DNA of 61,180 nucleotides, filler included, from Hausera hauseri (lineage: Eukaryota), in the NCBI GenBank assembly GCA_046269625.1. It is 10 parts of 10 records of this genome, joined end to end, with 100 filler letters (N's around TTAATTAATTAA, not from the genome) between each part and the next. Parts side by side here need not be neighbours in the genome. Positions count along the whole stretch, not along the records: positions 23,201 to 37,930 come from JBJURY010555450.1; 9 more parts are not named here. One strand, given 5' to 3'. Position 1 is the stretch's first letter. Every line of letters starts with the position of its first letter. The translations under genes and the position numbers were made by a program. The notes below the pieces were generated by a model. That model made no database searches, was not told the origin of the DNA, and was given only the letters and a program-made list of their open reading frames with translations. Below, in pieces: positions 16,244-56,446 of the stretch.

Positions 16244-19200
16244 TTGGAGTAGTGGAAACATGCGTGGTAGATAGAGGAATTGAAATCGGGGTAGAGGTGG
16301 GTACAGGTGTAAGGAAGGAGCTTTATGTCTCGGTTGGTGAGGTATCGTCAACGTAAAAGGCGGGTTTTAGATTAGTGATATGCACAAAAACTTCTTTTCC
16401 ATCTTTGAGAATAATAGCGTTGTGTGAATGCAGCTGCACCAGTTTATATGGTCCTATGTACAGTGGTTGGAAACCGCACGGTGTCGGATATTTTAGCCAT
16501 ACAAACTTTGCCGAGTATAAATCTTCGGGTATATAAGATCTGTCATTGTGTATAAGCCTGCAAAAGGAATCTTTGCTAATTGTAATGAAATGATCTTGTG
16601 CTCCTTGTATTCTTTCGTCCGTAGGTGTCTCTTCAAGAGCCGTTAGTTCAAACAGTGACCATACAGGAGTTCCGAATAAAGCTTCCTTTGGTGAACATCC
16701 TGCGGACAAGGACGGAGTGTTCCGCCAGCCCAGCAGGACGAACGGTATAAGTGTAGTCCAATTGGTGTTTGACTGTGCAAGGATTCAAAGTGATGTTTTC
16801 AAGGTTCGGTGGAAACGTTCGAGGAGGCCATTTGATTGGGGATGATATGGTGTTGTATGATTGTGACTTATACCCAATGGGTTGACTAGAGATTTGAACA
16901 GATTTGACTCGAATGGTGGACCTTGGTCTGAGATGATATAATGAGGAGACCCGAACCTACTAATCCACGTACGGAATAAGGTATCGGCTATGGTGTCAGT
17001 GTTTGTACTCCGTAGTGGTATGGCTTCCGGCCATCGTGAAGAACGATCCATCACGGTCAGAATAAATTGGTGGCCGTTATCTATTGGGAGAGGGCCAACG
17101 ATGTCAATATGTACTGTTTCAAAAGGTGACGTACAAGGGAAATGGCATAATGGCGATTATAAATGTTTTATGGTTTTATACTTCTGACAAGCCACGCACT
17201 CTTTAACCCATGCAGGGTACCAAGAAAACTGCGCATTTCTGTTGTTGTCTTAGGTAGTTGGACATTTTTAAGAGTCTCGACTCGATCAGGCTGAGGTGAA
17301 TGGCTGTTTGAAGAGATAATATGTCCGGGGAAATTACCGCGATTCTGAAAGAAGTTATATTTCGCAAAATTGATCTGTAGATTGAACTGATTAAGTCGTT
17401 TGAAGATAGATCGTAGGTGTTCCTTGTGTTGTTTAACAGAACTAGAAGCAACCAAGATATCGTAAATATATGGATGCGCAAAGGTGACGTCTGAAAGGAT
17501 TGAATCAATGTGTTGATGAAAAGTCTGCGCGGAATTCCGGAGACCGAAAGGCATATACAAATACTCATAAAGACCAAAAGGTGTGGTAACTGCAGTTTTC
17601 TCTATGTCTTCCGGTGCGACAGAAATTTGGTGGTGAGCTTTGGCTAAAACGATTGTTGAATAAACTGAAGTAGTATTAAGAAGATGTAATATGTCTTTGA
17701 TTAATGGTAGTGGATATGTATCCATTACGGTTAAAATATTAAGCTGGCGGTAATCGCCGCATGGTCGGAAGGATCCATCCTTTCTTTGGACAATGTGGAG
17801 AGGCGACAATCAAGGGGATTTAGATCTGCGGACGATACCTGATTGTTCGAATTCCATAAATTACGCCTCTACTGCCTGCCTGCGACGCGGTGACAATGGA
17901 TGGACTTTTCGTCCAATTGGTCTTTAATGTTTTGTAATTATATGATGGTTAATGCCGTTTACAGGAATGAAATTCCGATCTTTCTGAAGTATACGAGGAC
18001 AACAAGTATAGATGAATTGTTTTAAACTTACGCGTAGTTGCTGGAATGTTGTGAGTGGCGATAAACCAAGGTTGCTATCAGTACTTGGTATATGGTGGTT
18101 GGTTGTTGATGAGGAATTGGGTGGAGTTTGAAGTAGGATGGACGGGTCCGGAACTGTATTTGAGTAGGTGTTGTTGTTCAGTGATTTTACTGAAAATACC
18201 AAATCGTGGGTGTCGGCATTGTGCTGTGATTGACTGTCGACATTGTCCTTTGGAAGCTTACGATGTAAAGCATTATAGTTATTGGAATTATAATGAGGTA
18301 CTGACTGTTTTAAAATTGATTACCTACTTACTGTTGACTGTGTTGTCGTTGGGGTGTTGTCTATTCCTGTGCTACAGTCTACAGGTGTATTCAATTTCAG
18401 GCATTTTTGGTTACAATCAACTAGCAAATTATAGTGCGAAAGGAAATCGGAGCCAAGTATTGCTGTCTGGACGTTAGCGACTGTAAACGTGCAATGAAAT
18501 AAAGGGGAAAATTTTGGTATAGTGAAAGATAATTTGCAAGTTCCGGCAATATGAAGAGGTTGACCGGAGACAGTGTATAAAGGTTTTGTTTTAGTTGAAG
18601 AATGCCGAATCGGAAAAGAAAGTGGTAGTAGTGAAATCGCTGTGCCGGTATCGATAAGAAGATCTATGGATTGAATGTTAGGATTAGAGATAGCGGCTTT
18701 TAGTGTAAAGACTTTAAATGAAGTGTGTCGGCAAGAGGAACTAAGTAAATTGCCTTTGTCAGAATCTGCCGAGAGTACTGGCGGCGAAATCAGTTTTTTT
18801 GGATTGGTGAGTTAGGATGGTTACTGTTTGAGACACTGGAACGTCTATTAGTGGTGTAGTTATTGTTAGTTTTATAGTTACAGCCGGAAATACAATTCCG
18901 AGTATTAGACCAAAATTTTGCATGATAGATGCAAACTATGTTATCCGAGTGTAAATTTGACGAATAATATCTACATCCTAAACAGCATTTATTTGCATTG
19001 TTATTAAATTTGTTGTGGTAATAACATATAACCGCGTTGGTGATGATGTTCGATTTCTAGAAGAAGAACGTGTTCAATGAGGTGAGGAAGCATTCCGTCG
19101 ATGTAAGGAAAGGTCACTCAGCTTATCATTGATAGTGCTGATTGTATGTTGTAGTGCTGCATTTTCGGCGCGTAATTTGTTTAATTGGTGCTTGATAGAT

Positions 19201-19982
19201 GTATGTCGTTGATTGTCATCGGTCGTAATAGCGGCTGATATAATGGGTTGCGATTGGATTTGTAATACTTCGTGTGCTTTATCGGCCAATTCAGCTAGTT
19301 TACCTAAGGCTGTAGAATCTTCAACAACGGTTAATAAAGCCCTAATTTGAATGGGTAAGGCATTAAGGAAATATCGTCAAAGTAGACCCCGATTGTGTTC
19401 CTTGGTGACACCTAAATTACGTAAGTAAGCCAATGAGGTACGTAGGAAATCACTAGATTTTTGTGTCCCCATTGCATTTTCATTAAAGTAACGTTGCATT
19501 ATCGAATCAACTGATGGTTCTGTCAGTTTTAGCACATCATTGAACAATTGCGTATAAGGGTCAGGGTGTTGAAAGATGTTCAATAAGTTATGAATTGAGG
19601 CTTTTATGGAGTTTGGTAGAAAGTAGAGTAAATTATGGGCTTTGGGTAACGAGTCTGTAATACCCTTGGATTGTAACCAGAGTTGATGGAAGTGGATCCA
19701 GGTTTTGCTAGAATTTTCATTGTCTATAAAATATTCAGAGCAATGTGGAAGTGTACTGATAGGATTTTTGTGAAAATAATTTGTATCGGTTGAAGTAGGT
19801 TGATGATTTGATTTGGGATAGTACAGAATGGATTTGGGTTTTGTGGTCACCTTATCGATGGTGTCAATGGGTGGTGAAGAAATCATACCGCCGCAGATTC
19901 TATGATGGATATAAATACAGATATAGTGATGTGAGTTTATGATGTGTGGGAGGTCAGTTAAAATGAAGCCATTGTGAGTCAA
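16244..19982 (-). mobile_element. Decayed CsRn1-like Gypsy element (gag-PR-RT-[RNase H deleted]-IN)
   Basis: Gag at 19074-19982. CHCC finger ICIYHAKFWSNTRNCISGC at ~18880-18935. Protease LIDTGTAISLL at ~18630-18660. RT RPCGDYRQLN...MPFGLRNSAQTF...YIYDILV. Integrase RWPEA...SDQG...YHPQSNGLLERFHRTLK, then GPY. Confidence 0.92.
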
Positions 19983-20769
19983 GTAAAAATCGCTGAAGGC
20001 GGTGGTACTGTGAATGAGGGCATATAGTTGTAATGTCTCGAGACGTTGTGTGGTGTGTATTGTCTGTATTAGGTTATTATTAACATAAAGGTAGAGGGAA
20101 AAGGGTGGTTATAGACGGTAAATCGGATAGTGTGGTATCTCGACGAGGTTATTCGAAGTTAAGAAAATTGCTGTTTCTTTTGAAGAATCTGACCGACCTG
20201 TAGACCCCCTATAATTAATGGATCTATTGCGTATATAACTGACGCATACTGAAGAAAATCGACAATAGCTAGAAGGGAACGGATCCTGTTTATTGTCAGA
20301 AACTCTAGTCAGGTACTCGCTGTCATCAGAAGAATAAATCTGGCCGGCTTTGCGATAATGTGCCTTGATTTCACCTCGTATCATTACAGATTCGTTAATT
20401 TCCATAGATGGTTTAGTGTTGGATTATGTTGGTTTGGCAAGGTAAGGCACGGGTGGTGTGTAGTTAACAATGCCACAGGTGGCTGAGCCATTTTATTAAT
20501 TTCTATGTGGTCATAATCGAGTTCACGAATTCGTAAGAGTTTCAAATGCTTCAAAACGTAAAAGTGCGGTTTACCAATTTTGCCCAATGAAGCCAATTTA
20601 AATTTCGATGCAACTTTATCAACAGTTGCAAGATATCTCGAAAGACGATGTCGTAGGTAAAGAATAAAATGAAACAACTGTTGAATAGAATAAACGAAAT
20701 TTATGATCTGAGTAATAAAGAAAAGAAGTGTTTTGCTGAAATGGTATAGAATTACAACGATGGCAAAAG

Positions 20770-22930: not shown

Positions 22931-23276
22931 GATATTCATCAGTTTTCTTTCGTTCCGACTCGAATTACATTTCGAAATATTTGTTTTAATAATATTCACA
23001 CCGGTTTGAACTTGTAAGTAGCCACCATTGTCTTCTGTTCGTTTTCGTTCATTATTATTAACTGGTTGATGATCCTCAGTCAGAGGTTCAGCATTAAATC
23101 NNNNNNNNNNNNNNNNNNNNNNNNNNNNNNNNNNNNNNNNNNNNTTAATTAATTAANNNNNNNNNNNNNNNNNNNNNNNNNNNNNNNNNNNNNNNNNNNN
23201 CAATATTTATTTTTGGTAACAATTTGGTTCTAGAAAAAATCTAAACCAAATTGTTATTAATCATCAATTCACATCA

Positions 23277-23290
23277 TTCCCCTACCCTTA
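23277..23290 (-). promoter_or_regulatory. Polypurine tract
   Basis: Minus strand TAAGGGTAGGGGAA, immediately followed by TG (LTR start). A second copy is at 37735-37748. Confidence 0.85.
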
Positions 23291-23689
23291 AAGGGGGGAC
23301 AGCGAGAATTTGGAATCATCATTCAAGAATCATTCATACAAAATTCATGCACAAACAATTACTAATTAGTTCAAGTTTTAAAATACGACATACGAATGAA
23401 ATATTTAATTACTGGTTAAAATAGGAAATGAAAATATTATACAAAATGTGAAGGTGCTGATAAGATCAATAACCAAAGAGAAAAAGTGAAAAATATATAT
23501 ACAAGTTGCTCAAAATAAAATGATGCAAAAAAAATACAATATATACAAATTGCTAGAGAATACTTAGTCATACAACGATAAAAAATGAGAAATACAATAT
23601 ATACACAAGGTGAAGAAGACAATCAATTGTTAGATAAATGTTCAACGATCAATGTCTTTTTTCGGAGATTTTCGACATCCAGTTTAGTT

Positions 23690-26600
23690 TCAGATGTCTA
23701 AATCCACGTTTTCATATTGAATTCTGGTATGGATATAGTCCTCTTCATCTGGTTTGGAGCCCTTTCGCACACGCTCGATTGGAATCAAAACTGGTTTATT
23801 TGCTTTTATTAGCAGGATATACTTTAATTGACCTCCTTGAAACGATCTTTTGATATTGTCCAATTTTTCCTTGATCAAAAGTAACTGTAATTTGGTGTGG
23901 AATTTAATTCCAAAGTTTATTGGTAATTTCATGACGTTAAGTGTGCCGAGGTATGGAACAAGAAAATAGTCATTTTCCAACTTCTGGTATATCATTCCAA
24001 TTAATTTGTTTACTTCTGTGCTCCATTTGTAAACTTCATTAGAATCCAATGATTTTTCGATATAATAGGGACGTTCTATGTCATGTATTGGTACTGGTAG
24101 AGCTAGATATTCAATTTTAATAATAATACCAAAGTTGAAAACGATATCTTCTTTAGCGGATAAAGTGTCCTTTATTCTCATGGCGATTAAATCTACATCA
24201 GAAGTTTCTGTTTGAATTTGGACATTGACGGTTTTACAAGTTTTGTTCCATTGATCATATTCACGTTCTTGTTCGTCTTCTGACGCCATAAGTTGCAAAA
24301 TATCTTGATTATCTAGTTCAAAGATATCCGAATTCATTTCATCTGATTGCTGTCCGAGCTCAATGTTTTCTGGGGTGTTTAATTCTTCGTCTTCAGCTAT
24401 GGGATCGAATTCTGGTTTGCTGATACTTGCTTCAATATGGTGAATCCAACTGAAATTCTCCAAATATTTTTCCCGATTATAGAATAATTCACCAACGTCA
24501 ATAATATTATTGGATAAGTCATCTGGCATCCAACTGACCTGCCTTAAGTTTTTAATAGTTTTCAATATATCCATTGTAAGATCTATTTTGCCAATACTAT
24601 CTTGTTCGTAGGTATAACCATTTCGGATCTTGGGCAACTTCAACTCCTTGGCCACATTTGTGATATCTATGGCACTGAAGGATTTTTCTGTTACTTCGGG
24701 GTGTTTTAGCAAGTCAATAACACCCGCGAAGTAATTTGAGGGAATATCAAATAATTGGATCATTTTGTGCGTTTCAACACCGACTACAATGGTGCCGAAC
24801 AGCCATTGTATTAGTTCTTTGGTGACGTCGTATAAATCTATCGCGGAATTTTCGATGGAATAAAAATCTATTCCATGACGTCCCGTGTTACAATTGTGGA
24901 TTTTTTCTCTGTTGGCCACAAGTGTCTTGTACAGTATTCGACGATGTTGATCTGTAACAATTACTTCCACAGGTACTGGGGATTTATCCATTTTAAATCC
25001 CAGCGAAACAACCAAAATCCTAATTGTATTAGATTGTCCTGTACAGATATAGTTGGACTTTGTTTCTTGAATCAGTTCTGGGGGACTTTGAGCTATGATT
25101 AGTGGTCTGGGTAGAGCTAAATGCTTTTCCGGGATTATCCATTCGACCATTAATACTACTGGTATTCGATTAGGCCTAATTTGGATGTTCTTCACAGTTA
25201 AAGATGTATTAATCGCCAAGGTTTCCTCTTCCAATAAGGTTGTTATGTTTGACAGCTTGTATTGGCCATCCTTTGCTGTTTTTAGTACTATGGTTCCTCT
25301 GGCATTATGTATGACCAATCCTTCAATTGATGGGTATTCTGTAATAAATTCTTCCAGATTTCTTTGATGTGTCTCGGTGATAAGTACAATCCTCACTTGT
25401 CGATTCAGGGTGAGACCGTATTTGAATTGATTTGGAATTTTCGCCACATGGACGTAAAGAGACTGTGGGTACACGTTGGCTTGTCTTCGGATCGTATTAT
25501 AAAAATTTCTGGCCATGGTATGCGTAAATGAGGAGGTTTTTGTTGCGTATCGAGACAGTAACTGCTCAATTGTAAGGACTTCTGAATGAAACAACGGATG
25601 AGTTGAGGTGGATATCTGTCTATGTCGGATTTGTGACACGTTGACTTTTTGAGTTGGGTTTGACATGATGTATTGAACTTTCTGTAACAGATTTGACTGC
25701 AATTGAAGATTTTGACGATTTTTTGAAAAAGGGGCTGAATGATAAAGTTCATTAGATTTATACCTACCATAAACTGCGTGTGTGTCATGTGGTAACCACA
25801 TAACCAACGAATAAAGAATGAGCGGGCTTAATGTGCGTGGCGCAAGTGTGTGTGTGTCAATTCTAGGTGTCATCAGTTGTGACTGGACACCTGATTTTTG
25901 AGGGCAATAGCACGTGCTAGTGCTAGTAAGATATTTACGGTAAATTTTGGGTGACAGCAAAGCGCCCAGAGCCAAAACTACTAGTAACAATACACTTAAC
26001 ATTATTATTAACAAAGCACATACTGCTATGTTTATTTCTGTGACTTCAATGCTTTGTTTTAGCAATGAATCATTTCGAATATCTTTAGGGCTAAAGTGAA
26101 ATTTTACTACTTTGTTTATTTTTGACAAAGTTTTAATGTTGATTTCAGAATAATGCGTACAATTTTTTACTATTACTAGGTAATTTGTATCTGAGATCAA
26201 CCTTGTACAATAAGCATATTTTTGTTTTCTTTCTAAAATGATTTTTTGCTGGTTATATTGATCTATACATGTTATACTAACCCATTCATTTTTCGGGTTC
26301 ATTTGATAATTCCAAGTAAACGCTATTCTATCTGTTTTTGGATGGCTTATAATAAAGAGTTTACTGGTTATTTCAATTTCGTTGTGTCTAGCTAATTTTT
26401 TATATTCCTTATAGGATATATTACATCTATTTTGCTCGACCATGAATGCAGTATCGAAGAGACATTCATTGAGTCGATAGGGTATCAAACATTTGACACT
26501 AGATTTCACTATCAACTGCAAAATCCATTTGTTGTGTGCTTTTAATTTAAAGATTAGTGCTAACAGAGAATATGAATAGTCTCTAACAACTACTAAGCAA

Positions 26601-29600
26601 GTTTGGCTATTTTCATCATCTAAGTCTACAAAAGCTATTCTATCTTTATAGAAAGTTACAATTCGTATTGCAGTCATATTATTAGCTGATCTTTTTCGAA
26701 ATTGTATACAACCTTTTTTAAAATCTAATCCTATTATTTCTATTTCTTTATTAAATATCTGGTCACTAGGTGTATGGTTTTGATTTTGCTGAATGGCTTG
26801 AATCATTGTATCATAAGAGATGTAGAATTGACCAGAACTGGCTTGAGTACAGGATAATAAAATGATAAATGTGAATATCATTATTAACAAGTTAGTGGAT
26901 AATAAACTTGGTGATTTTAAACCGAATTTTCCTGTATAAGCTGTTGGAGCTTTAGTTACGTTTTGTATAGAGACATTCTCTATCTTTCCTGGAGATTTTT
27001 CTACAAATAAAGTTTGTGGTCTTACTTCGACGACTTTGTATGGTCCTTTGCCGGTACGAGTTAATTTTAATGATCTACCTTTTGTAGTTACTGGATAATG
27101 CGTCATAACAAAATCTCCGATTTTATATGGATTTGATTGAGTCTTTTTGTTGTAATGTTTTGTATATGAATTCTTGTAATCTTCTCTAACAGTCTTTGCT
27201 TGTTCGCCATAGTCATTTAACTGCTTTAACAGTGCTGTATAATTTTCTTCTTGTGGATTGTTAGTAAATGGTAACGCTGTTGGTAGCAAGCTAACATCTA
27301 ATGGGAGTAATGGTAACCGTCCAAACATTAATTCGTACGGTGTTTTGTTTGTACTTCTTGTTGGAGTAGTATTCATAGCAAAAGCTACTGTTGGCAACTT
27401 ATCTGGCCAATTTTTCTGATCTGCTGATACTTGTACGGATAAAATTCCTTGTACAGTTCTATTAGATCTTTCTACTTTCCCGTTGCACTGTGGGTGATAG
27501 GCTGTAGTTAAAACGTGTCTGGTTTGCAAGACTTTTGTGACTTCATTGAATAATTGACTTGTGAAGTATGGTGCTCTATCTGTCAATATCTGTCGCGGTG
27601 CACCTAAAACACATATTAGTTTATTAAACAATTCTAACGCTATGGTTTCTGTTGTCATAGCTTTCAAAGGAATTAGTACAATATAACTTGTATAGTAGTC
27701 TATGAAACTTAATATGTATTTGTAGCCATTTATCGAAGTTGGATATGGACCTGAAATATCCATTGCACATATTTCCATAGGTGCTTTTGGTTCTGGAAGT
27801 GTTCCTAATATTGGCTTTATGCTTCTTCCTCTATCCCTACGGGTGGCGCAAATCTTACAAGATTTGACCCAATTTACTATGTCTTCACTTTGGTTTGGCC
27901 AAAAATATTTAAGCTTAATTCGCTTTATCGTTTTGCCCATTGAGGGATGACCAGCTAGGTGAGAATCGTGTTCTTGCAATAATACTGATTTTATTAGTTC
28001 ATTAGGGATTACAATTAGTGCTTTGTCATGGTGTATATATTTTAGTATATTATGATCTATGATCAATCTGGTTTTGTGATCATTTAGCCATTCTGTTAAT
28101 CTTTTATCAATGTTCGGCATAAGCGATGTACGTACATATTCTTTTATTACATATAGCAGTGGATCATTGTCCTGCACATCTGCTATTTTTTCCGTATTAA
28201 GATTTGCAAAGGCTGTCATCATTTTATTGAATTCATGGTCATCTATTGGCACGATAGCTGCTGTATTTGGTTCAGAAGGATAAATGGTTCGAGATATAGC
28301 GTCGGCATCATTATGGAACTTTCCTGGCACGTATTTGAATTTGGGATTGTAGTTCAGCAATTCTAATTTCCATCGTTGAATCCTATTGTATATCCGTTTG
28401 TTCTTACAGTCAATATTCTCTAACGCTTGGTGATCAGTATATACTATGACAGGATATCCATAAATGTAAAATTCGTAATTTCGTAAGCCTTCTAGTACCG
28501 CTAAAAATTCTAATTCAGTAGTAGAGTAATTTTTCTCTTCTTTAGTTAGTGCTCTTCCACCATAAGCTACTACGTGCTCTATTTGTTCATTAGGATATTG
28601 TTGGGCTAAGATGTAACTTAGGCCGTTTAAGCTTGCATCAGTCTTTAAAATAAATGGTAATTCAAAATCTGGATATTGTAGAATAGGAGCTGAAACCATT
28701 TTCTTTTTCATGATGTCGAAAGCGTATTGATGCTTTTCTTCCCATATATATTTCTTGTCATTGCGCAATAATTCATACAATACACTGTTAATTTGTGAAA
28801 AGTTTTCAACAAAAATACTGTAAAATCCAATAAGTCCTAACCAACATTGCAATTCTTTTTTATTTGTAGGAGCCGGAAATTCTAAAACTTTAGCGACTAT
28901 ATGTGGACTAGTTTCGATTCCTTTGGCTGATATTTTAAAGCCTAAATATGTTACTGAAGTTTGACACCAATCGCATTTGAGTGGGTTCAATTTTAACTTA
29001 GCATCTCTTAATCTTTCAAAGACTTCCTTAAGTTGCTGTATATGCTCTTCCCAAGTTCTAGACGCTATTAAGATGTCGTCTATGTATGATAAGCTTCTAA
29101 TTCCTTTTAGTACTATTCTTATGAATTCTTGAAAGAATGTTGGAGCTGTTTTAAGTCCGAAAGGCATTCTTGTGAACTGATATATCCCAGTATGCGTTTT
29201 AAAAGCTGTTTTCCATTTATCGGCGGCAGTTATGGGTATGTTTAGAAAACCCCATTGTAAGTCTAATGCAGTAAATAAAGTACATCCTTTTAAATCGTTT
29301 ATTATTTCTTTAATTCGAGGAATTGGATAGATATGGTTTTCTAGATATTTGTTTAGCTGCACAAAATTAACACATAATCTTCTTTTTGTAGTATTCTTCT
29401 TTGGTACCATTACTATTGGTGACGCCCAAGAGGCTTGACTTGGTTCAACTATTCCTTTATCTAACCAATCTTGTATTTGTTCTTCCACTTCAGCTTGTAG
29501 TGAATGCGGTGGTGGATACCATTTTGGCATTGGCTGTCTATTCAAATCTATTTCTTTTCCAGTTTTTTCATCAGTTATTAAGTTTAATCGAAATTCAACG

Positions 29601-32600
29601 AGATCTGTACATCCGATATCTACATCATTAAGCGCAAAGATTTCTGAAAACTCTTTTATTAATTTAATCATGTCTTTTAATTGCTCCTCACTAACTCTTT
29701 GCTTAATGTTTGCTATCAATTGTTGGAAAATTTTGTGCTCATTCAACTCTGTCTGAGTGGTTGCTGCTAAGAAATCAGTGATATTTTGATCAAAGGTACG
29801 AAAAAATTCACCTATTCTAGTATTAGGATGTAAGATTTTTGTACGTTCAGAACAATTGGCTACTACAATCGGAATAGTGCCATTCTGTACTACTGTACAA
29901 ATTGTGGAAAAGTAGTATCCTCTTTCGAAATCTTTTGGTTCGAATTTTACTATTATATTCTCGGGTGCTAAAAGCTTTCCTTTAATTGTCATTTCGCAGT
30001 AAGGTGGTATAATTATTTCATCCATTATCCATACAGCATTTTTATACTTTGGATTGTCTTGTAGTGGTAGATGATGATTTATACAGATTTGTCCTGTGGA
30101 TAAGTCCATTACTGAGTTTTTCAGTTTTCTTAGAACGTCTACTCCAATAATCATTCTTGGGTATAATTCTTTCATTACTTGAATTGTAGCGGTTACTTTT
30201 TGTTCATAAATAACAATCTCAGTAGTCCAATATCCTATAGGAAACACTGTTTGTCCGAAAAGTGATACATTACCACTATCAGATGGGTTTGCTAATCTTA
30301 CTTCATGTTGATAATTCAATGGAATTACTGTTTGGTGTATCAAAGTTACTGTTGCTCCAGTATCTATTAAAGCACTTATTTCTGCATCTCGAATATGCAC
30401 AGTGGTTTGCGGTCTTGGATCATAAGTCCGACTGATTGATTGTAACTGCTTTTCTGTCGGGTTCCTAACCAAAGGTAACAACGAGTATACTCCAGCAGTT
30501 CTGATAACGCCGTTGTCAACAATAAATCTTCCATTTAAGGGCATTTCAGAAGTACTGTTTTCTATTAAGTTTGAATTAGTTAATAGTGGTGATGTTGGTC
30601 TGGATGAAGTAAATGTTGGTGGTGAGGTTGGTCTAGATGTTATCGTTGTAGTTGGCTTCCATTTCTGTGCTAAAGATGCTAAATCCGGATATTGACTTGT
30701 TCTTTTGAGTTGCTCATTTTCTACCTCATTAGTACGAGTGGGTGCTCCGGGTACCACGAATAATTTCCTATAATTTTCATGTTCGCAGTATGGGTCTCTG
30801 ATTTCCTTTTCGATTTTTTCCGTAATTAATGGCAAATTCTGAATATTTGTACTTGTCGACGGTAATTCTGTATAAGTATTGTTTTCAACATTCAGCCTCG
30901 GTGGAGATTTTGGTGGTGGTTTCTTTTTTCTATTATCTAAATTAACATGTTGCTCCACCAGATTCTTCCATCTTTTTTCTTCATGTGCTTTAAGTATTTT
31001 TCCGAAAGGTGTAAAAACAGCTGATAATATTTTTAGTGAGAATCCGGTAAGCGTGTATATTTCATAAGCATTTAGCAGTGATGATAATATGGCTTTTGCC
31101 GTCTGTATACTTAAATAAATTGTGAAAATTCCTGCTGATACGGTACCAAATTTTATGAATCCTCCCCATAATGTTTTTAAGAAGTTCATTGTTACTTCTT
31201 TATAATGGTCAGGACTTAATAGCTTTTCCCACCTTGCATCTTGTACTCCGTCATCTAATATACGATGTAATGCTTTATTTAATGCTTGTTCTCTTTGAAC
31301 AGGGTATCTCAATGCTTGAATCATGTCGTTTATCTCGTCTCTTGTGTAGAGAGTTGTTTTTGACAGATCTGTGAATAAGTTATTCTCTACAGCGTGTCGC
31401 AACGCTGTCATTGTAAGTCGTTTGGGTGTTTTATGCGGCTTTTTCCGCTCTGGTAGAACTACCCATGTGCCTTCATTGTCATATTTTATGTAAGGCTGAT
31501 ATAATGTTGTACAATTCACTATTTTAGTAGGCTCAGTGTTTTTATCCAACAGTATACGTGTTATTGGTTGTACATATCTAATCTTTTTCTTGTAGGTTAC
31601 TGGAATTTCAATGTAACATATATTCTTTAGAATTACTAGTGGCACTTCGACTCGTTTACATTTGTATGTAAATAGAGCTTCTCCAATGATTTTGCCTTGT
31701 ATGCCTTCGCCTAATGGCATGGTTATTGCCGCCATTTCTGGGTTGGTAGCTAAGATAGCTAGTCTATTTCTTAGGGTTTCAAGATTAACCTTACAGAAAT
31801 TTTCGATTATTTCTGTGTACATTTCATCAATAGTTTTCTGAGTTATATAAAATAAGGTGTCATCTCTGATGTTAAAATGATCGCCTATGTTTAGGAAACT
31901 TTTAATATCAACTGGTACATTATCTGCATCTGGCACTTCTGAATCTGCAATATAATAGGAGGGATAGTTTGTGGAATGAATTGCTTTTCCACACTTAAAC
32001 GTAGGTTCTTGTTGAATAAATTTCACTCCTCCTACAAGGTTGGCAGACATGATAATTGTAGGCGTTTTAATTTCTGGTATCTGGTTTACGTTGGTCTGTT
32101 CGAAATTCGTTTCGAAGTATTTAGCGTATCTTTTGCCTGAAGTCACGTTAAATATGCCTTTCTTTATCAGCACTAGATGGCAGTCAAATTTCTTTGGTAC
32201 ATCCCATATCAAAACTGAAGTTATAGTGTGGCAATATCCTTTGCCTAATTTACAGAATGCCGCATCCATCATGGCTTTAGTGTTCGTATCAAAGTTGTAT
32301 GTCTGTTGTTTTATTTGAATTCTATATTGGTCATGTACTATCAAACCTGATTGCGGTCCTTTGCCTAAATCATATGTTCCTCCATTACAATTTCCGCCTA
32401 AATCTTTAGTTCCAACAACATATCTTTCAGTTTGATGCACTTCACCTATACCGGCTTTTAATTCCATTCTATCATATCTCATAAATCCTGTGTCAATTGC
32501 TACTTTGCAAGCTTCAGGTGTTACCGCTTCTGGTTCCGGTATGGTTGTTGGGATAATGATAGTTTCGTGACTATGCATTCCGCAATAGGTTACTGTTCTT

Positions 32601-35600
32601 GATCTTGTTAGCATACATTCGTAGCCTTTTACTTGCACTGATGCTCGATCGTGATAAATATATAATGTCTTTTGTACTGTAGTTATATTTCTGGGATGTG
32701 CTTCTGGACATGAATCTAGATCCATTAAGGAGTAGTAGTCACCTTCATAAATATGTTCGCAATCATAGGCCAGAATGTTATTGCTTCTTTTAATTAGAGA
32801 CATAAGCATTAATATTAGAAATAATATTGAAGAATATGAAGAATTACTTCCTTTTGATCTCATATCCTTTATTTCAATTTCTAAGGACTTATTTAATTCA
32901 GTAGTTATTTTGGGTATCAAAATTTCTTCTTTGTCTATTACCGTTTTTAATACTGCATCAGCTTCTTCTTCGAGATCTACTGTATTTCGGACATTTCTTA
33001 GGAATAAATCATTCCATGAGCATTTGTTTGGCACTATGTTTTGGCTCAACTGTATAATCTTTCCGGTAACGGTTTTTACGTCACTTTGATCATGAATATC
33101 AGTTACTAATAGGCAAATACTTTTTTCTAGATTTTTTCGAGTAGGCTTTTCTATTAATATTTGGGCCAAATCTTCTGACGTAATATTTTTATACGCTGGA
33201 ATTTTCTTTAACTTTTTGATGTATTTCAATAATTCAAGTACTCTAATTCTCCATTTCTGATTAGAATTAGGTTTTGCCATGCCTCTATCAATATCAAATA
33301 TTTCTTTAATTAATCCTTTTACTTCTTTATATTCTTTATAGAGTTGTGGGACTTCGTAATCTTGTAACTGTTTTGCAAACTGCTGAGCTAGCGTAATAGT
33401 TTTTGTTCGCTTTGTTTTAGCAGCTTTATTTAAATCAAGCAGGGTGCATTTTGCAACGTTTTCTAACATTTTAGTGTCATCATTGCAGACTTCGTTTAAG
33501 TTAATAATTTCTGGCAGTATCTGTATTGGCTTAAAATCGCTTTCTTCTATTTCTATCATATAGGTTTTTTCTGGTAACATACCTAAATCCGAGACATAAT
33601 CATCTAGATTCAATGTTCGACCTTTAAAAGTATAGTTTAGCTCGTTCAATGGTTTGTCAATGCTTGCTCTGATATGAATGTCCAAATGTCTAACAGTTTC
33701 GTTGGTAGAAATTTTAATTTGTGGCATTATTAAACTGTTGAATTTTGGCACAACATTTATGTATTCATTTTCAAGAGTTATGGACTGTCTGATTTTTGCA
33801 CCTAATAATTTTAATAGCACTTTTGGAGTTGCATTATATAAATACTCATCGGCCGCTAATGGGATCAACTTATGTACGATTCTTCGTATTTCATCAGTAT
33901 TAGGTTTTTCTGCCAAATATGTTACTAGCAACGTTTCTAGAAAACTTGGGTGATTCTTAAAGGCATCTATTTGCTTCGATAGTTCATTTTCTGAACTCAA
34001 TTGTTGAGAATCTATTTTTTGTATAGCAACTTTTATTAAACCTTCTCTTCGTGGTCTGTGTGGGTCTTCATCAGAGTCCGAGGATATTACTACAGTATCA
34101 GATTTCTTTTCTTCTGTATCTGATAATACTATTACTGTGTCTAACTTTTTTCCTTCGGTATCTGTCAATGGCATTGTCTTTGATGAAGTAGAGTCTGATT
34201 CTTTATCTAAGTCTGTACTAAACAACATGTTATTTCTAATTTTATTTACTGTTGCTATGAATTCTTGCAATTTCTGTTCTTTTTCATCATTAGACTCGAT
34301 GCCTAACTTTCTAATTTCTTTTAGAATATTTATTAATTCTTTTTTCTGGTTAGTATCAATATCTTCATTATCTTTTAATATTTTCCGTACTTCGATCTTT
34401 AGTTCTGATATAGAGCTGATGAATTCTGTAGTGATTTCTAGTAGCTTACTTTGAATATCATTTAATGTTTCTAGTTTTTCCAAACTAAGAGGTTCTTTCT
34501 GACTTCTTTGGGTTAATATTTGAAGAGCACTCCATTTTTGTAGTTCAGAGGGTGATAATGCTTGATCTAATACGTCAGCTAACTCGATATTTGCAACAGT
34601 GAATTCGTCTATTTTATTTTTTATAAACACGGATTTATTTTCTAATATTTTAATATTGTCATTTAAAAGTTGCTTTTGTTTAGTTGATAATTTCTTAGTT
34701 TTTAATTTGTGCTGAACTAGTTTAACAATTACATCATCTAAATATTGCATTGTTGGATATTCTTTATCTGTAACTTCCTGTGCTTCTTTGAGCAAGTTTT
34801 CAAACTCAATTTCTTCAGGAGTTTTATCTTTATTTAATACTTCCACAATTACATCATCAATTCGTTTTTTCTGTTCTTCTTGAATTTCAATCTTTCGTGT
34901 TTCATAAAGCTCTTTCATAAGCTTATTGTAATTATCTTTTGATGAACTAGCAGTAGGTTGAAAATATGCATTAATAGATTCAAGTTTCTCTAATCCAAAA
35001 GGTATTTGTCCTCTAGCCATTATATCTAAATCTTTAATCATTTGATTCATGACTTTTCCTTTAGTTTCTTCAGAGATTTCTTGATCATCATGTATAAATT
35101 TATCAGCAAATTTTCTTGGCGGAGATTTTGAATTTTTTCTAGATTTTTTCAACTTTGTTAAAGTTTCTTCTGGAATGCTTTCTGGCACCTTTTTAGGCTT
35201 TTTTCCAGTGTAGCCAGGAGATATATTTTTTATTATTTTCTTTCCATCCTTATCAACAGCTGCTACTGGTACTGGCAAGGCATCAAAAGCCATTTGTTCT
35301 AATTCTGTTAATTGCTTTCCGGCAAAATATTTTCTTACTGCATTTTTATGCGCTTCAATAATTGCTAATTTAGCTTCCATAACTTCTTCATCATCTGTAC
35401 CACATGAATAAGGTGTACGATTTACACTAAAATTTTGTAGCTTTGCAAAATCCTTTGAATTTTGATTTGACATGGGCCAATGTTCAAGATAGTATTCAGT
35501 AGAAGGTCCAACAGTTTTTTCATTGAAGGCTGCAGATTTAGTGGTAGGCTCACTTTTTATTGGTAACTTATCATTTGGAGTTCTGCAATTATTAGCTGTA

Positions 35601-36439
35601 TGTCCATTACGTTGGCATCTATAACATTTTATAACTCTTCCAGCTCTATTCACATCTTCTCTACCATCATTCTGATAATTATTTCCTTTATAAGGTGGTC
35701 TATTGCCGTATTGATTTCTATTTTGGTTACTATTTTCATTTTGACTACTTGACGGATTCCGTCTACTTTCTTCTTGTGAATTGTTTTTTGATACATTAGC
35801 GTTAGGTGCTTGATAATTATTATCTCTATTTGTTTTTGGAGGTCTAAAAGCCTCAAAGTTCTGTGCCATTTTTAAAGCATCAGCAAATGTATTTGGACTT
35901 CCAGCCAAAACCTTATATTTTAAATCTGGTACTAAACCTCGGATAAATTGCGTAGACAGTAAAATATCAGTGTCAACCTTGATATCCTCGACATCATCCT
36001 TATTTCCTTTTCTCATTTTAGTTAATTTAATTGCTTCAACATAATTTGAAATTAATTGTCTTAAAGAATATGCAAATTGAGTCACTGATTCATTTTTTTG
36101 AAACTTATTTTGAAAAATTATTAATTGTTGTTGAGGGGTCATGGTCGGCAGAAATCTATCTATCATTGCTATGCTTATAGTATTCCAATTTTTTCGTTCA
36201 GCATCACTTAAATCATTGTAAGCATCTATAGCTATATCAGTTAAATACAAAGGTAAACGTCTAATTTGATCTTTTTCACTTAATTCTAATGCGGTACTTT
36301 GCGATTTATAAGTTTTCAAAAATGGTAACAACTTATCGGGTTGACCATTAAATTTCTCTACATCGATTTTAAAGTTTCTGAAATCATACACATTTACATT
36401 ATCTTTAGCCATATTTTGGTTAAATTTAAGTTTTTCCAA
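23690..36439 (-). CDS. 4249-aa polyprotein: Gag - accessory insert - chuvirus-like glycoprotein - PR - RT - RNase H - IN - membrane FN3-like protein - exonuclease-like domain (first ATG at 36412)
   Basis: Capsid-like region (FNGQPDKL...ESVTQFAYSL...FIRGL). CCHC CYRCQRNGHTANNC at 35585-35626. AYDC and CGMHSH glycoprotein motifs. DTG at 30356-30364. YIDD at 29075-29086. RNase H TDAS...ELE...TDH...ADAISR. Integrase HHCC, DDE and GPY (27038-27046). No stop or frameshift. Confidence 0.95.
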   Translation of the reverse strand: MEKLKFNQNMAKDNVNVYDFRNFKIDVEKFNGQPDKLLPFLKTYKSQSTALELSEKDQIRRLPLYLTDIAIDAYNDLSDAERKNWNTISIAMIDRFLPTMTPQQQLIIFQNKFQKNESVTQFAYSLRQLISNYVEAIKLTKMRKGNKDDVEDIKVDTDILLSTQFIRGLVPDLKYKVLAGSPNTFADALKMAQNFEAFRPPKTNRDNNYQAPNANVSKNNSQEESRRNPSSSQNENSNQNRNQYGNRPPYKGNNYQNDGREDVNRAGRVIKCYRCQRNGHTANNCRTPNDKLPIKSEPTTKSAAFNEKTVGPSTEYYLEHWPMSNQNSKDFAKLQNFSVNRTPYSCGTDDEEVMEAKLAIIEAHKNAVRKYFAGKQLTELEQMAFDALPVPVAAVDKDGKKIIKNISPGYTGKKPKKVPESIPEETLTKLKKSRKNSKSPPRKFADKFIHDDQEISEETKGKVMNQMIKDLDIMARGQIPFGLEKLESINAYFQPTASSSKDNYNKLMKELYETRKIEIQEEQKKRIDDVIVEVLNKDKTPEEIEFENLLKEAQEVTDKEYPTMQYLDDVIVKLVQHKLKTKKLSTKQKQLLNDNIKILENKSVFIKNKIDEFTVANIELADVLDQALSPSELQKWSALQILTQRSQKEPLSLEKLETLNDIQSKLLEITTEFISSISELKIEVRKILKDNEDIDTNQKKELINILKEIRKLGIESNDEKEQKLQEFIATVNKIRNNMLFSTDLDKESDSTSSKTMPLTDTEGKKLDTVIVLSDTEEKKSDTVVISSDSDEDPHRPRREGLIKVAIQKIDSQQLSSENELSKQIDAFKNHPSFLETLLVTYLAEKPNTDEIRRIVHKLIPLAADEYLYNATPKVLLKLLGAKIRQSITLENEYINVVPKFNSLIMPQIKISTNETVRHLDIHIRASIDKPLNELNYTFKGRTLNLDDYVSDLGMLPEKTYMIEIEESDFKPIQILPEIINLNEVCNDDTKMLENVAKCTLLDLNKAAKTKRTKTITLAQQFAKQLQDYEVPQLYKEYKEVKGLIKEIFDIDRGMAKPNSNQKWRIRVLELLKYIKKLKKIPAYKNITSEDLAQILIEKPTRKNLEKSICLLVTDIHDQSDVKTVTGKIIQLSQNIVPNKCSWNDLFLRNVRNTVDLEEEADAVLKTVIDKEEILIPKITTELNKSLEIEIKDMRSKGSNSSYSSILFLILMLMSLIKRSNNILAYDCEHIYEGDYYSLMDLDSCPEAHPRNITTVQKTLYIYHDRASVQVKGYECMLTRSRTVTYCGMHSHETIIIPTTIPEPEAVTPEACKVAIDTGFMRYDRMELKAGIGEVHQTERYVVGTKDLGGNCNGGTYDLGKGPQSGLIVHDQYRIQIKQQTYNFDTNTKAMMDAAFCKLGKGYCHTITSVLIWDVPKKFDCHLVLIKKGIFNVTSGKRYAKYFETNFEQTNVNQIPEIKTPTIIMSANLVGGVKFIQQEPTFKCGKAIHSTNYPSYYIADSEVPDADNVPVDIKSFLNIGDHFNIRDDTLFYITQKTIDEMYTEIIENFCKVNLETLRNRLAILATNPEMAAITMPLGEGIQGKIIGEALFTYKCKRVEVPLVILKNICYIEIPVTYKKKIRYVQPITRILLDKNTEPTKIVNCTTLYQPYIKYDNEGTWVVLPERKKPHKTPKRLTMTALRHAVENNLFTDLSKTTLYTRDEINDMIQALRYPVQREQALNKALHRILDDGVQDARWEKLLSPDHYKEVTMNFLKTLWGGFIKFGTVSAGIFTIYLSIQTAKAILSSLLNAYEIYTLTGFSLKILSAVFTPFGKILKAHEEKRWKNLVEQHVNLDNRKKKPPPKSPPRLNVENNTYTELPSTSTNIQNLPLITEKIEKEIRDPYCEHENYRKLFVVPGAPTRTNEVENEQLKRTSQYPDLASLAQKWKPTTTITSRPTSPPTFTSSRPTSPLLTNSNLIENSTSEMPLNGRFIVDNGVIRTAGVYSLLPLVRNPTEKQLQSISRTYDPRPQTTVHIRDAEISALIDTGATVTLIHQTVIPLNYQHEVRLANPSDSGNVSLFGQTVFPIGYWTTEIVIYEQKVTATIQVMKELYPRMIIGVDVLRKLKNSVMDLSTGQICINHHLPLQDNPKYKNAVWIMDEIIIPPYCEMTIKGKLLAPENIIVKFEPKDFERGYYFSTICTVVQNGTIPIVVANCSERTKILHPNTRIGEFFRTFDQNITDFLAATTQTELNEHKIFQQLIANIKQRVSEEQLKDMIKLIKEFSEIFALNDVDIGCTDLVEFRLNLITDEKTGKEIDLNRQPMPKWYPPPHSLQAEVEEQIQDWLDKGIVEPSQASWASPIVMVPKKNTTKRRLCVNFVQLNKYLENHIYPIPRIKEIINDLKGCTLFTALDLQWGFLNIPITAADKWKTAFKTHTGIYQFTRMPFGLKTAPTFFQEFIRIVLKGIRSLSYIDDILIASRTWEEHIQQLKEVFERLRDAKLKLNPLKCDWCQTSVTYLGFKISAKGIETSPHIVAKVLEFPAPTNKKELQCWLGLIGFYSIFVENFSQINSVLYELLRNDKKYIWEEKHQYAFDIMKKKMVSAPILQYPDFELPFILKTDASLNGLSYILAQQYPNEQIEHVVAYGGRALTKEEKNYSTTELEFLAVLEGLRNYEFYIYGYPVIVYTDHQALENIDCKNKRIYNRIQRWKLELLNYNPKFKYVPGKFHNDADAISRTIYPSEPNTAAIVPIDDHEFNKMMTAFANLNTEKIADVQDNDPLLYVIKEYVRTSLMPNIDKRLTEWLNDHKTRLIIDHNILKYIHHDKALIVIPNELIKSVLLQEHDSHLAGHPSMGKTIKRIKLKYFWPNQSEDIVNWVKSCKICATRRDRGRSIKPILGTLPEPKAPMEICAMDISGPYPTSINGYKYILSFIDYYTSYIVLIPLKAMTTETIALELFNKLICVLGAPRQILTDRAPYFTSQLFNEVTKVLQTRHVLTTAYHPQCNGKVERSNRTVQGILSVQVSADQKNWPDKLPTVAFAMNTTPTRSTNKTPYELMFGRLPLLPLDVSLLPTALPFTNNPQEENYTALLKQLNDYGEQAKTVREDYKNSYTKHYNKKTQSNPYKIGDFVMTHYPVTTKGRSLKLTRTGKGPYKVVEVRPQTLFVEKSPGKIENVSIQNVTKAPTAYTGKFGLKSPSLLSTNLLIMIFTFIILLSCTQASSGQFYISYDTMIQAIQQNQNHTPSDQIFNKEIEIIGLDFKKGCIQFRKRSANNMTAIRIVTFYKDRIAFVDLDDENSQTCLVVVRDYSYSLLALIFKLKAHNKWILQLIVKSSVKCLIPYRLNECLFDTAFMVEQNRCNISYKEYKKLARHNEIEITSKLFIISHPKTDRIAFTWNYQMNPKNEWVSITCIDQYNQQKIILERKQKYAYCTRLISDTNYLVIVKNCTHYSEINIKTLSKINKVVKFHFSPKDIRNDSLLKQSIEVTEINIAVCALLIIMLSVLLLVVLALGALLSPKIYRKYLTSTSTCYCPQKSGVQSQLMTPRIDTHTLAPRTLSPLILYSLVMWLPHDTHAVYGRYKSNELYHSAPFSKNRQNLQLQSNLLQKVQYIMSNPTQKVNVSQIRHRQISTSTHPLFHSEVLTIEQLLSRYATKTSSFTHTMARNFYNTIRRQANVYPQSLYVHVAKIPNQFKYGLTLNRQVRIVLITETHQRNLEEFITEYPSIEGLVIHNARGTIVLKTAKDGQYKLSNITTLLEEETLAINTSLTVKNIQIRPNRIPVVLMVEWIIPEKHLALPRPLIIAQSPPELIQETKSNYICTGQSNTIRILVVSLGFKMDKSPVPVEVIVTDQHRRILYKTLVANREKIHNCNTGRHGIDFYSIENSAIDLYDVTKELIQWLFGTIVVGVETHKMIQLFDIPSNYFAGVIDLLKHPEVTEKSFSAIDITNVAKELKLPKIRNGYTYEQDSIGKIDLTMDILKTIKNLRQVSWMPDDLSNNIIDVGELFYNREKYLENFSWIHHIEASISKPEFDPIAEDEELNTPENIELGQQSDEMNSDIFELDNQDILQLMASEDEQEREYDQWNKTCKTVNVQIQTETSDVDLIAMRIKDTLSAKEDIVFNFGIIIKIEYLALPVPIHDIERPYYIEKSLDSNEVYKWSTEVNKLIGMIYQKLENDYFLVPYLGTLNVMKLPINFGIKFHTKLQLLLIKEKLDNIKRSFQGGQLKYILLIKANKPVLIPIERVRKGSKPDEEDYIHTRIQYENVDLDI
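31013..32830 (-). other. Chuvirus-type (class III-like) envelope glycoprotein domain inside the polyprotein
   Basis: Hydrophobic signal ILFLILMLMSLI, then AYDC...YSLMDLDSC, C..TRSRTVTYCGMHSH, CNGG, CKLGKGYC...W, GE..FTYKC..VEV, CYIEIPV...P.TRIL...C, and a C-terminal TM region LWGGFIKFG...GFSLKILSAVF. Confidence 0.82.
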
Positions 36440-36944
36440 AAGAACAATAGGTAAATTAGTGCTTGTTTTAGCAAGACTTTGACTTCTAGTTAGTCTTCTG
36501 TTATTTTCTATTTTGGCTCTGAGAACTTTTACTGTTTTTTGATATATATATACCCTTTGTAATTTTATTAATTATTACTTTAGGTATACTAGTGATTTTT
36601 AAGTGTGCGACTTCTTGACTGTCAGAGTCAGATGTCTAAACTTGGCAAAAAGGTAACTTTAAATGTTTAATTACTGTATTAGTATTTTTCCCCCACCCTT
36701 AAGAGGTTAGTAGGATTTTACACAAAAAGAGGAATAAGAAGTTCAGACACGAGTGCTGCTTCTTTCGACGATAACAACTTTTTTTTTATCAAGACAACGT
36801 GACCACCTTCGTGGTATGGGTCAATGAATTCAAGAAAGTTATCGTAATTAGTAAAGTAGATATGTGAACCGTTAAGTTTCACAGAAAATGGAGCGATAGG
36901 ACGTTTAAAGAAGTTAACAAGACGATCAAACATCAAAAGATTTG

Positions 36945-36957
36945 TGTTCGGGCGCCA
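36945..36957 (-). promoter_or_regulatory. Primer-binding site, tRNA-Lys(UUU) type
   Basis: Minus strand TGGCGCCCGAACA matches the first 13 nt of the tRNA-Lys3 PBS and lies 5 nt after a CA LTR end. Confidence 0.85.
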
Positions 36958-36962
36958 ATTAT

Positions 36963-37734
36963 TGTATTTCACGATTTTTTGAAGAATCAATGAAATACTC
37001 TGAGGGAAAAAATAAAGTTTATAACTTTAAATGGTGTGTTAAAATTTTGTAATGAATGCGGAAAAGGTGGAGATTGATTAATTAACTTCGGTTTTCTGTG
37101 AACCGAGTTTAAGAATTTTACTTAGAACAATTAAAAAGATTTAACGAACAAATATAATGAACACAACAAATACAATAATTCCTTATAGGAATCCAAATAC
37201 CAAAAAGATTCTTGACAAATTAAATGGTAACTATTTGCACCAAAATAAAATGACAAGAAAGTTCAAATAAAATATTACTCTTGTAGAGTAACCAATACTA
37301 ATTCAATAATTGCAATTGTTCTTACAGAACAATTAAATTCCAATTATTCAATAATAAGACAATAAATGAAGCTTTACCCGAGGATCTAGTTCAGCACAAG
37401 ACTAAGCATAAACAGCAGAGAATATCATCAAACAATTTTTCATCAAAAATTTACGCTCAAACAATTTTTTCTTCCATACTGAAATTCGTTTCAGTATATA
37501 TACCTTTGATGCTTCTAATCTTAGTGACAAAAAGGGTATAGAACATGTTATTCAGCGATTGTTAAGCGTTCTAAATTTGGGTATAAATTTGGGGTAGAAA
37601 AAATCCTCACTAAATACATTACCAAACTATTTATGGTAACAAAACAGGGGTAGAAAACTAATATTTATTTTTGGTAACAATTTGGTTCTAGAAAAAATCT
37701 AAACCAAAGTGTTATTAGTCATCAATTCACAACA
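36963..37734 (-). repeat. LTR (~770 bp)
   Basis: Bounded by the PPT+TG and CA+PBS. The first 76 nt recur at 23201-23276 with 4 differences. TATA-like TATATATA at ~37495. Confidence 0.8.
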
Positions 37735-39012
37735 TTCCCCTACCCTTAAAGGGGGACAGCGAGAATTAGAGTCATCATTCAAGAATCATTCATACAAAAT
37801 TCATACACAAACAATTACTGATTAGTTCAATTTTAGAATACAACATACGAATGAAATATTTAATTATTGGTTGAAAATAGGAAATGAAAATATTATACAA
37901 AAATGTGAAGGTGCTAAAGAGAAAAAGTGANNNNNNNNNNNNNNNNNNNNNNNNNNNNNNNNNNNNNNNNNNNNTTAATTAATTAANNNNNNNNNNNNNN
38001 NNNNNNNNNNNNNNNNNNNNNNNNNNNNNNTTACATTGCTGCCCTGGGGGGTAGATTTTTCAATGACTGTATTACAACAAGTCTGCAGAGTCAATACACA
38101 AAACTTTCGACTCAGACTCTGATATTTCTGGTGCTTCCAAATCCCAGCTGCTCAAAAATTGCCTTGACTCCAACTACTTGACAGGTTTGTAGGATCGGAC
38201 ATGAAACTTTTGACTCCAACATTTCTAGTTCTTCTGTTCTAGATACCCAAAAAATTTCACTGACAATGTCCAAAGATTTACAAATTCTACCTTTACCTAC
38301 TACCAGTTATTAATCAGAGAAACGCCTGACCAGTGTCTCTCACAGCATGTACTCCATAGCAGAAGTGGCATCCCTTGATGTTTCTAGAGCATGAATTCTG
38401 CTGTCCATTTTATAATGGGTGGGTGAACATCAGGAGTTATGTTTTTGTAAACCATGGGTCCAGAACCAAAGTTAAACCCGGGTCACCTGGACCAAAACCT
38501 AAACAGCAGGCGAATGACTTTTTGACTACACTACTGCGGCTCTCTAGAAAGAACGTAGCTGGTAGCAGCCTATCAGCCTCCTGCACTGTTTTTTTTATTT
38601 CCACTATCACGAGATACAGGAAATGTATAACATGAATATCAGACTGTCACGATCTCAAAATGGACAAAGTGTTTAATCCTAGAACCACAGTTAAAGTTTG
38701 GTACTGGCAACAAAGTAAAACCCACATATCATAGCCAAACACAGACTCGGCTAACTAAATAAACAGATGTGAGGACACATATGAACACTTGAGGACATAT
38801 TAGAAGTGACTAGGTCAGTGACAGTTAACACTCTCGGGAAGCTCTTGATTTGGTAATCTGAGAAAGTATGGGCATTACTTGAATGTCAGAAGGTTCCTAA
38901 ATCAAACAATCAACCAGTCTAGCTCTAAGATGGAAAACAAACAGTAAAATTACGTGTGTGAGATTAATCAACCAGGAGGGTTAGTACAATGAAATGCACT
39001 AATCAGGAAGGT

Positions 39013-56158: not shown

Positions 56159-56446
56159 CCAGTAAAAGTCAGCATACGGGCACTAGGTTGAAGTATTGCA
56201 CGTCGGACATAGATACGTGTCCANNNNNNNNNNNNNNNNNNNNNNNNNNNNNNNNNNNNNNNNNNNNTTAATTAATTAANNNNNNNNNNNNNNNNNNNNN
56301 NNNNNNNNNNNNNNNNNNNNNNNTATGTTTAATCCACTACATTATGTATTTGCGTAAGTGAATTTTAGTACAGTACATGCAATATATGCTATTTTAGACC
56401 TACAGTACATTGCTGAACAAACAAGGCACAAGAAACAAATGCCTAT

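Follow-up and report, generated by a model that had tools for sequence, protein, structure and literature searches.

A predicted second membrane protein with a DEDDh-like tail beyond the integrase of a GAG-ENV-POL Ty3/gypsy element from Hausera hauseri

The stretch analysed here (the window, 61,180 nucleotides joined from parts of a Hausera hauseri assembly) includes one contig, 23201-37929, that carries a single long terminal repeat (LTR) element of about 14.5 kb on the minus strand. Positions are those of the whole joined stretch, and amino acid (aa) numbers count along the polyprotein from the start of its open reading frame (ORF). The element is a Ty3/gypsy LTR retrotransposon with env, i.e. 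an errantivirus in the operational sense of LTRs, Pol order and Env, and it belongs to the GAG-ENV-POL subgroup, as its Env lies between Gag and Pol. Past the integrase the ORF continues through a region that is tentatively read, with confidence a little short of even, as an accessory membrane protein of type I that signal peptidase would set free and that would tether a catalytically dead DEDDh-like tail at the membranes used by Env.

The region is delimited by two hydrophobic segments (Table 1). The first, H1 (LLIMIFTFIILLSCTQA, aa 3228-3244, 26890-26840), starts 52 aa past the GPY motif (aa 3176). Together with TM2, the transmembrane (TM) segment that follows, it supplies the only stretches of 19 residues with a Kyte-Doolittle value over 1.6 anywhere in the polyprotein; the signal and anchor of Env itself score under that hydropathy. 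H1 has two basic and no acidic residues before it and no basic and one acidic residue after it, and TM2 one basic and three acidic before and three basic and no acidic after. This asymmetry fits integrase inside, the 270 aa between the segments outside and the tail inside (N-in/C-out, then out/in). Hydropathy and charges together fit a predicted type I membrane protein freed by signal peptidase, the cleavage site of H1 being judged by eye via the (-3,-1) rule of that enzyme. The predicted luminal region holds eight cysteines (3.0%, compared with 2.6% in the Env ectodomain and 0.6-1.4% in other polyprotein regions) and five N-x-S/T sequons against 2.7 expected, which is unremarkable alone.

Much of this had been proposed in an earlier note on this DNA. 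The peptides that it quoted are all encoded, in frame, by the minus-strand ORF, and its Cys-containing segment of about 270 aa, lying between hydrophobic stretches and followed by a TM segment (aa 3515-3539), is confirmed. DRIAF does occur twice, at aa 3310 and aa 3414, but some 5-mer recurs exactly in 630 of 20,000 shuffles; no longer internal repeat was detected in the 270-aa region, where 989 of 2,000 shuffles score as high. The proposal of a second membrane protein stands in so far as the protein is constrained, predicted to be type I and encoded in one ORF with a gB-type Env, but the cytosolic tail of 754 aa had been overlooked. The note also held that the region occupies the usual site of env; it does follow GPY, but the recognisable Env lies upstream, interposed between Gag and protease.

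The element is present in two public sequencing runs, the better-matching of which may be the source of the studied DNA itself. In run X1, 376 contigs align on 25960-26960, 266 of them less than 90% alike, so that diverged relatives carry at least patches of the region, including H1 and the stretch resembling fibronectin type III (FN3) considered below. The differences listed for the contigs on 25960-26960 include no indels, and not one of the 40 creates a stop. The luminal part accounts for 32 of the listed differences, 15 of them synonymous where 22-27% would be expected (p 0.002-0.014), with a crude ratio of nonsynonymous to synonymous rates (dN/dS) of 0.33-0.43, by a test that is rough and made on short contigs rather than a codon alignment; removal of three twice-hit codons leaves 13 synonymous among 26. 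For the remainder of the ORF the count is 16 of 35 and the dN/dS 0.38-0.48. The synonymous excess thus places the luminal region at roughly the constraint of the core genes, and this region is a constrained part of the element family, under purifying selection. Extra run-X1 contig cover is also seen over the bin 24674-25164, which holds the DEDDh-like region.

That region was recognised from matches in the tail to exonucleases of the SDN1/REX kind. The best PDB match of the tail is SDN1 (5z9x, E 0.35), and a profile of 13 RNase_T sequences gives 12.5 bits (single-profile E 6e-6), a score reached by none of the 631 scored shuffles (1,000 made). These two tests suggest a weak sequence likeness to the DEDDh fold. 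The ExoI position reads ILVVSLGFK, with no D-x-E, and the ExoII stretch has no Asp (both by eye, and mostly outside the printed DEDDh alignments); the catalytic acidic residues thus appear to be absent. A search among longer proteins with the DEDDh-like region found no relative. Two more parts of the tail flank it (25022-25954 and 23693-24514, minus strand), in which no Pfam, PHROGs or NCBIfam family was found.

Homology searches with the membrane region were negative throughout. No relative of aa 3200-3700 was found in a library of 5.8 billion proteins, of which only those of 2,361-7,513 aa were compared, and HMMER with aa 3200-3560 gave no match among 1.84 billion representatives. Neither scans of JGI and IMG/VR contigs nor a PDB sequence search returned a relative of the membrane region, and scans seeded with Env yielded no viral contig and just two loci, both broken and uninformative. 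PHROGs and NCBIfam hold nothing under E 0.01 for the region, and Pfam has no family over cut-off, PF00041 included, in the 270 aa or in the 754-aa tail.

The earlier note had described the ectodomain as FN3-like. The pattern on which this rested, W...L-x3-T-x-Y-x-V, is present (a post-hoc regular expression matches 13 of 100,000 shuffles, uncorrected for its choice), but the fold finds no backing in Pfam, HMMER, HHalign or the less biased of two profiles. By eye, aa 3400-3481 show the FN3-like residues W3419, L3458, T3462 and Y3464 with alternating hydrophobics, and lack the Gly, Pro and strand-F Ala typical of fetched FN3 sets. T3462 and Y3464 have only synonymous listed differences, I3459 and N3463 being changed, a small point that would favour FN3. 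The HMMER test gives -0.8 bits, a score matched or exceeded by 1,024 of the 1,988 shuffles scored, and HHalign a probability of 0.14%. Profile 1, whose 119 domains come from 122 loci selected with a motif that includes L-x-P-x-T-x-Y (PF00041 confirmed for 62 of 66 aligned members), scores 14.9 bits (composition-corrected, glocal) against a held-out true-member minimum of 31.8. This score is reached by 6 of 2,000 ectodomain shuffles and 30 of 200 whole-polyprotein shuffles, and the control of 119,270 unrelated residues gave five peaks. Profile 2, of 91 domains from Pfam-picked loci harvested using profile 1 as seed, is less biased and gives 8.0 bits against a minimum of 21.9, with 794 of 3,000 shuffles as high. 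The best ectodomain peak of both profiles ends at the FN3-like stretch; both are prokaryotic, and a diverged animal FN3 could therefore be missed.

In the structure prediction that the note had recommended, AlphaFold2 without an alignment gives a mean predicted local distance difference test (pLDDT) of 36 for the 270 aa and of 43 for a 95-aa part with seven strands, and fold searches on these models, too low in confidence to be meaningful, list no FN3 and no clear match. In ESM Atlas the ten best named matches all share the beta-propeller clan, at scores of at most 0.80, which is noise level, and a TolB match to the region has E 0.067. A propeller of WD40/PD40-like type gains no support: profiles made for it score at chance (70-363 of 1,000 shuffles as high) and there is no internal repeat. 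A PH-like look of aa 3280-3395, by eye, has no Pfam support. In our judgement FN3 is possible at somewhat under an even chance, a propeller is unlikely, and the rest goes to another beta fold.

Relatives with gB-type Env bear on how general the arrangement may be. A query with Env-Pol retrieved 37 long proteins, two of which carry PF24664, and nine of the 37, including both of these, were checked for tails. ENA protein P0006 (2,871 aa) has a Gag-gB-Pol ORF that runs on past the integrase into a signal, about 95 aa of Cys-rich lumen, a TM segment and a tail. It resembles the element in this single ORF with a signal-lumen-TM-tail cassette and in 33% identity over the best Env-Pol alignment; it differs in its shorter, unrelated lumen, its short tail and a second protease-like stretch ahead of the cassette (after the integrase, residues ~2467-2558). 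Its cassette shows no sequence similarity to that of the element, and it does not group with the element in a quick, poorly resolved tree of reverse transcriptase (RT) and RNase H. The other protein with gB-type Env, P0027, ends about 95 aa past GPY and has no such cassette. With an unrelated cassette in one and none in the other, the post-integrase membrane cassette seems to be recurrent, optional and varied in content. Other gypsy-like polyproteins of 4,200-4,300 aa with extra domains are P0040 (PF01612 exonuclease, PF00293, PF00385) and P0031 (PF02225).

As an accessory anchor the protein could work as follows. H1 would insert with the integrase left in the cytosol, cleavage would follow T-Q-A and translocation would begin; TM2 would then halt translocation and anchor the new chain. 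The folded luminal domain, once glycosylated, may bind a partner or steer trafficking, and the tail would act in the cytosol, probably by RNA binding, either to recruit or protect the RNA of the element or to hinder silencing by the host. As the ORF has no stop or frameshift, the protein would be produced in amounts equal to those of Gag, Env and Pol, barring a subgenomic RNA that begins at Met3231, and since a related gB-type element lacks it, it is likely unnecessary for fusion. Internal cleavage by signal peptidase has been predicted for the polyprotein of a planarian nidovirus (PMC6211748).

In favour of the accessory anchor are the intact ORF, LTRs 96% alike, the two strong hydrophobic segments, the charge asymmetry, purifying selection and the DEDDh likeness by two tests, as well as the recurrence in P0006 of the signal-lumen-TM topology while the ectodomain does not recur. 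Several points weigh against it. A conserved lumen of 270 aa exceeds what an anchor needs, so that the outside part probably has a job of its own. RNA binding by the tail is something that we only infer, and the DEDDh match is weak, spans about 64-93 aa and is missing from the Pfam scans. A cytosolic Pol also means that the anchor of Env would need an odd number of membrane passes. The selection test drew on those 40 differences, out of 70, that the tool picked by support, in contigs at least 80% alike and with three codons changed twice. Diverged contigs hardly cover the tail outside 24674-25164, and for that reason it remains a prediction that ectodomain and tail are joined in other copies.

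Ranked behind the accessory anchor, in descending order, are an attachment subunit, a spacer, a decoy and a passenger, the first of these being compatible with the anchor. As an attachment subunit of a two-glycoprotein envelope, distinctly less probable yet a serious contender, the ectodomain, maybe one FN3, would be in particles and bind a receptor, leaving fusion to the gB-type Env. A shared ORF would likely give the two proteins in equal amounts, and the Env-like cysteine content, purifying selection and the preserved T3462 and Y3464 next to changed I3459 and N3463 are in keeping with this. A cytosolic tail of 754 aa would be unusual for a virion attachment protein, however, and FN3 is unproven; P0027 has no such protein and P0006 an unrelated one, which argues against a conserved partner. 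Published parallels exist, as herpes gB requires gD, gH and gL, how gB-type errantiviruses enter cells is described as unknown (both PMC13524379), and a belpaovirus with GN- and GC-like glycoproteins serves as precedent (PMC9094657). A bolder version, which we consider rather unlikely, is a herpes-like two-part entry machine in one polyprotein, with a gB-type fusogen before Pol and a receptor-binding glycoprotein past the integrase. The ectodomain of this glycoprotein would be swapped from one lineage to another (270 aa in the element, about 95 aa in P0006), and its pseudo-nuclease tail would link RNA to the budding site.

The recurrence of the topology with unrelated lumens, as in P0006, would also suit a cassette in which H1 and TM2 only let signal peptidase part Pol from the tail and the lumen is a functionless spacer; the length and cysteine richness of the lumen, and a constraint equal to that elsewhere in the ORF, make this improbable. 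Less probable still is a mimic or decoy at the surface of the expressing cell, derived from a captured host FN3/Ig receptor and serving immune evasion or competitor exclusion. The membrane-proximal FN3-like pattern and the host-like regulatory domains of Burro elements (PMC6431247) lend it some colour, but no donor or homologue appeared in the libraries searched, the host genome lying outside the search. The capture from a host receptor suggested in the earlier note is accordingly not established, no homologue of any kind having been found in those protein and contig libraries. That the region is a non-functional passenger, open by chance in this copy, would agree with the lack of homologues outside the two public runs; it is very improbable and largely refuted by the synonymous excess and the lack of listed stops or indels, to which 1,100 extra open codons in AT-rich DNA may be added.

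The other features of the element are set out in Table 1. A spacing of 14,458 bases separates the terminal repeats, which agree at 244 of 254 aligned positions (96%), and a contig of run X1 extends the downstream LTR by 183 bases of upstream-LTR-like sequence. Gag matches PF03732 (E 0.044) and PF00098 (E 0.0046), both under the curated cut-offs. Env lies in frame between the Gag CCHC knuckle and the protease (aa 2052), and the Pol families follow in the order PF00077, PF00078, PF17917, PF17921, PF00665. In the quick-method RT-RNase H tree (37 rows) the element falls in no strongly supported group. Between Gag and Env lies an acidic/Lys-rich spacer of 900 aa (32852-35554, minus strand) with no Pfam family over cut-off. 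The cytosolic tail of Env carries a YPDL motif ahead of the protease (~30680-30695, minus strand, aa 1961), and P0006 has YPHL and PSAP at the matching place. These motifs, which we take to resemble late-domain motifs of the endosomal sorting complex required for transport (ESCRT), hint that the signals for budding sit on the tail of Env and not on Gag.

Table 1. Features of the LTR element, in positions of the window
Feature	Position	Strand	Basis or remark
Upstream (5') LTR, aligned part	37660..37915	-	matches 23202-23458; outer end cut by contig end
Single uninterrupted ORF	23690..36571	-	4,293 codons stop to stop; first Met aa 54 (base 36412)
Gag, capsid-like region and one CCHC knuckle (aa 314-330)	35552..36412	-	Pfam
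gB-type/mononegavirus-like class III Env	30905..32827	-	PF24664 E 1e-74, aa 1249-1889
Pol: protease, RT, RNase H, integrase with H2C2 and GPY (aa 3176)	26972..30418	-	Pfam
H1, signal-like hydrophobic segment ending T-Q-A, holds Met3231	26840..26890	-	Kyte-Doolittle 2.33
Predicted luminal region, 270 aa, beta-rich	26030..26839	-	lies between the two hydrophobic stretches
Membrane-proximal all-beta subdomain with FN3-like pattern, fold unproven	26129..26374	-	seven strands in pLDDT-43 model
TM2, aa 3515-3539, strongest hydrophobic segment of the polyprotein	25955..26029	-	Kyte-Doolittle 3.37
Predicted cytosolic tail, 754 aa, same chain	23693..25954	-	ORF continues past TM2
DEDDh (SDN1/REX-like) exonuclease-like region, aa ~3850-3975	24647..25018	-	weak PDB and profile matches
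Downstream (3') LTR, aligned part	23202..23458	-	runs off contig end

Elsewhere in the window, a contig at 10275-16142 is extremely skewed in AT (0.7-0.9), has long minus-strand frames free of stops and looks like a simple repeat array. The following were seen by eye: broken Ty3/gypsy gag-pol fragments at 16323-20108 (minus strand), broken BEL/Pao-like pol fragments at 45193-47342 (plus strand), fragmented ORFs like family-B DNA polymerase on two contigs (52365-56182 and 58374-59999, minus strand), an ORF at 43292-43924 (plus strand) with a ubiquitin-like stretch ending LRGG and then a coiled-coil-like region, and two Cys/His-rich ORFs like NFX1-type zinc-finger repeats at 2202-3265 (minus strand).

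A constrained second membrane protein is a candidate for the missing entry partner of gB-type errantiviruses, or for a host-interaction factor. On the predicted layout, host signal peptidase would act on the polyprotein both before and after Pol, and annotation that ends at the integrase misses about a quarter of such ORFs.

The order GAG-ENV-POL, with HSV (herpes simplex virus)/gB-type Env, has been published for errantiviruses of Nematoda, Bryozoa and Platyhelminthes (Chary and Hayashi, PMC13524379). With these the element shares the Ty3/gypsy Pol order, LTRs, a gB-type Env interposed between Gag and Pol and the occurrence of several related copies, and to them it adds the second membrane protein and the DEDDh-like tail past the integrase. 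The main text of PMC13524379 does not contain the words 'fibronectin', 'immunoglobulin', 'exonuclease' or 'nuclease', and its elements may carry such tails unremarked. The planarian Burro/GYPSM1 elements encode a single giant polyprotein of 4,873-5,140 aa with an in-frame Env between Gag and Pol and extra domains (PMC6431247), and the element, at 4,293 aa, is alike in having one huge ORF with an in-frame Env. Burro/GYPSM1 exceed 25 kb and carry BIR, MATH, ankyrin and dUTPase domains, whereas the element is about 14.5 kb, below Burro size, and a Pfam scan of it finds none of these four. Its extra domains follow the integrase and include a membrane protein, an arrangement unmentioned in the Burro section of PMC6431247.

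Bdelloid rotifer Vesta/Juno LTR elements have DEDDy or two-TM ORF3s past pol (PMC5408684), and thus resemble the element in a post-pol exonuclease of DEDD type or in short two-TM ORFs with cysteines between. In the rotifer elements these are separate ORFs and the nucleases are DEDDy, with catalytic residues intact and no TM domains; in the element the TM protein and the DEDDh-like region are fused in frame and a fusogen is also present. Atlas virus (Belpaoviridae) is an LTR element with GN- and GC-like glycoproteins (PMC9094657), and so shares two membrane (envelope) proteins with the element, whose second one is predicted only. In Atlas virus GN and GC sit side by side as a class II pair of phlebovirus origin, whereas the element has a class III fusogen, from which its second protein is separated by about 1,300 aa that include Pol. 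Small TM proteins are known from env-less gypsy elements (PMC11952523). Kuafuorterviruses, also considered for comparison, offered nothing relevant in the text consulted (PMC11673190). No membrane protein past the integrase of a GAG-ENV-POL element was found in the literature searched, which left most subscription papers and Repbase outside. The element is best regarded as a variant of the Burro-like/GAG-ENV-POL errantivirus plan, with an extra protein of putative fold and role. Its backbone is known; what did not appear in the literature searched, and may be new, is the constrained second membrane protein with a pseudo-nuclease past the integrase of an element in which a fusogen is already present.

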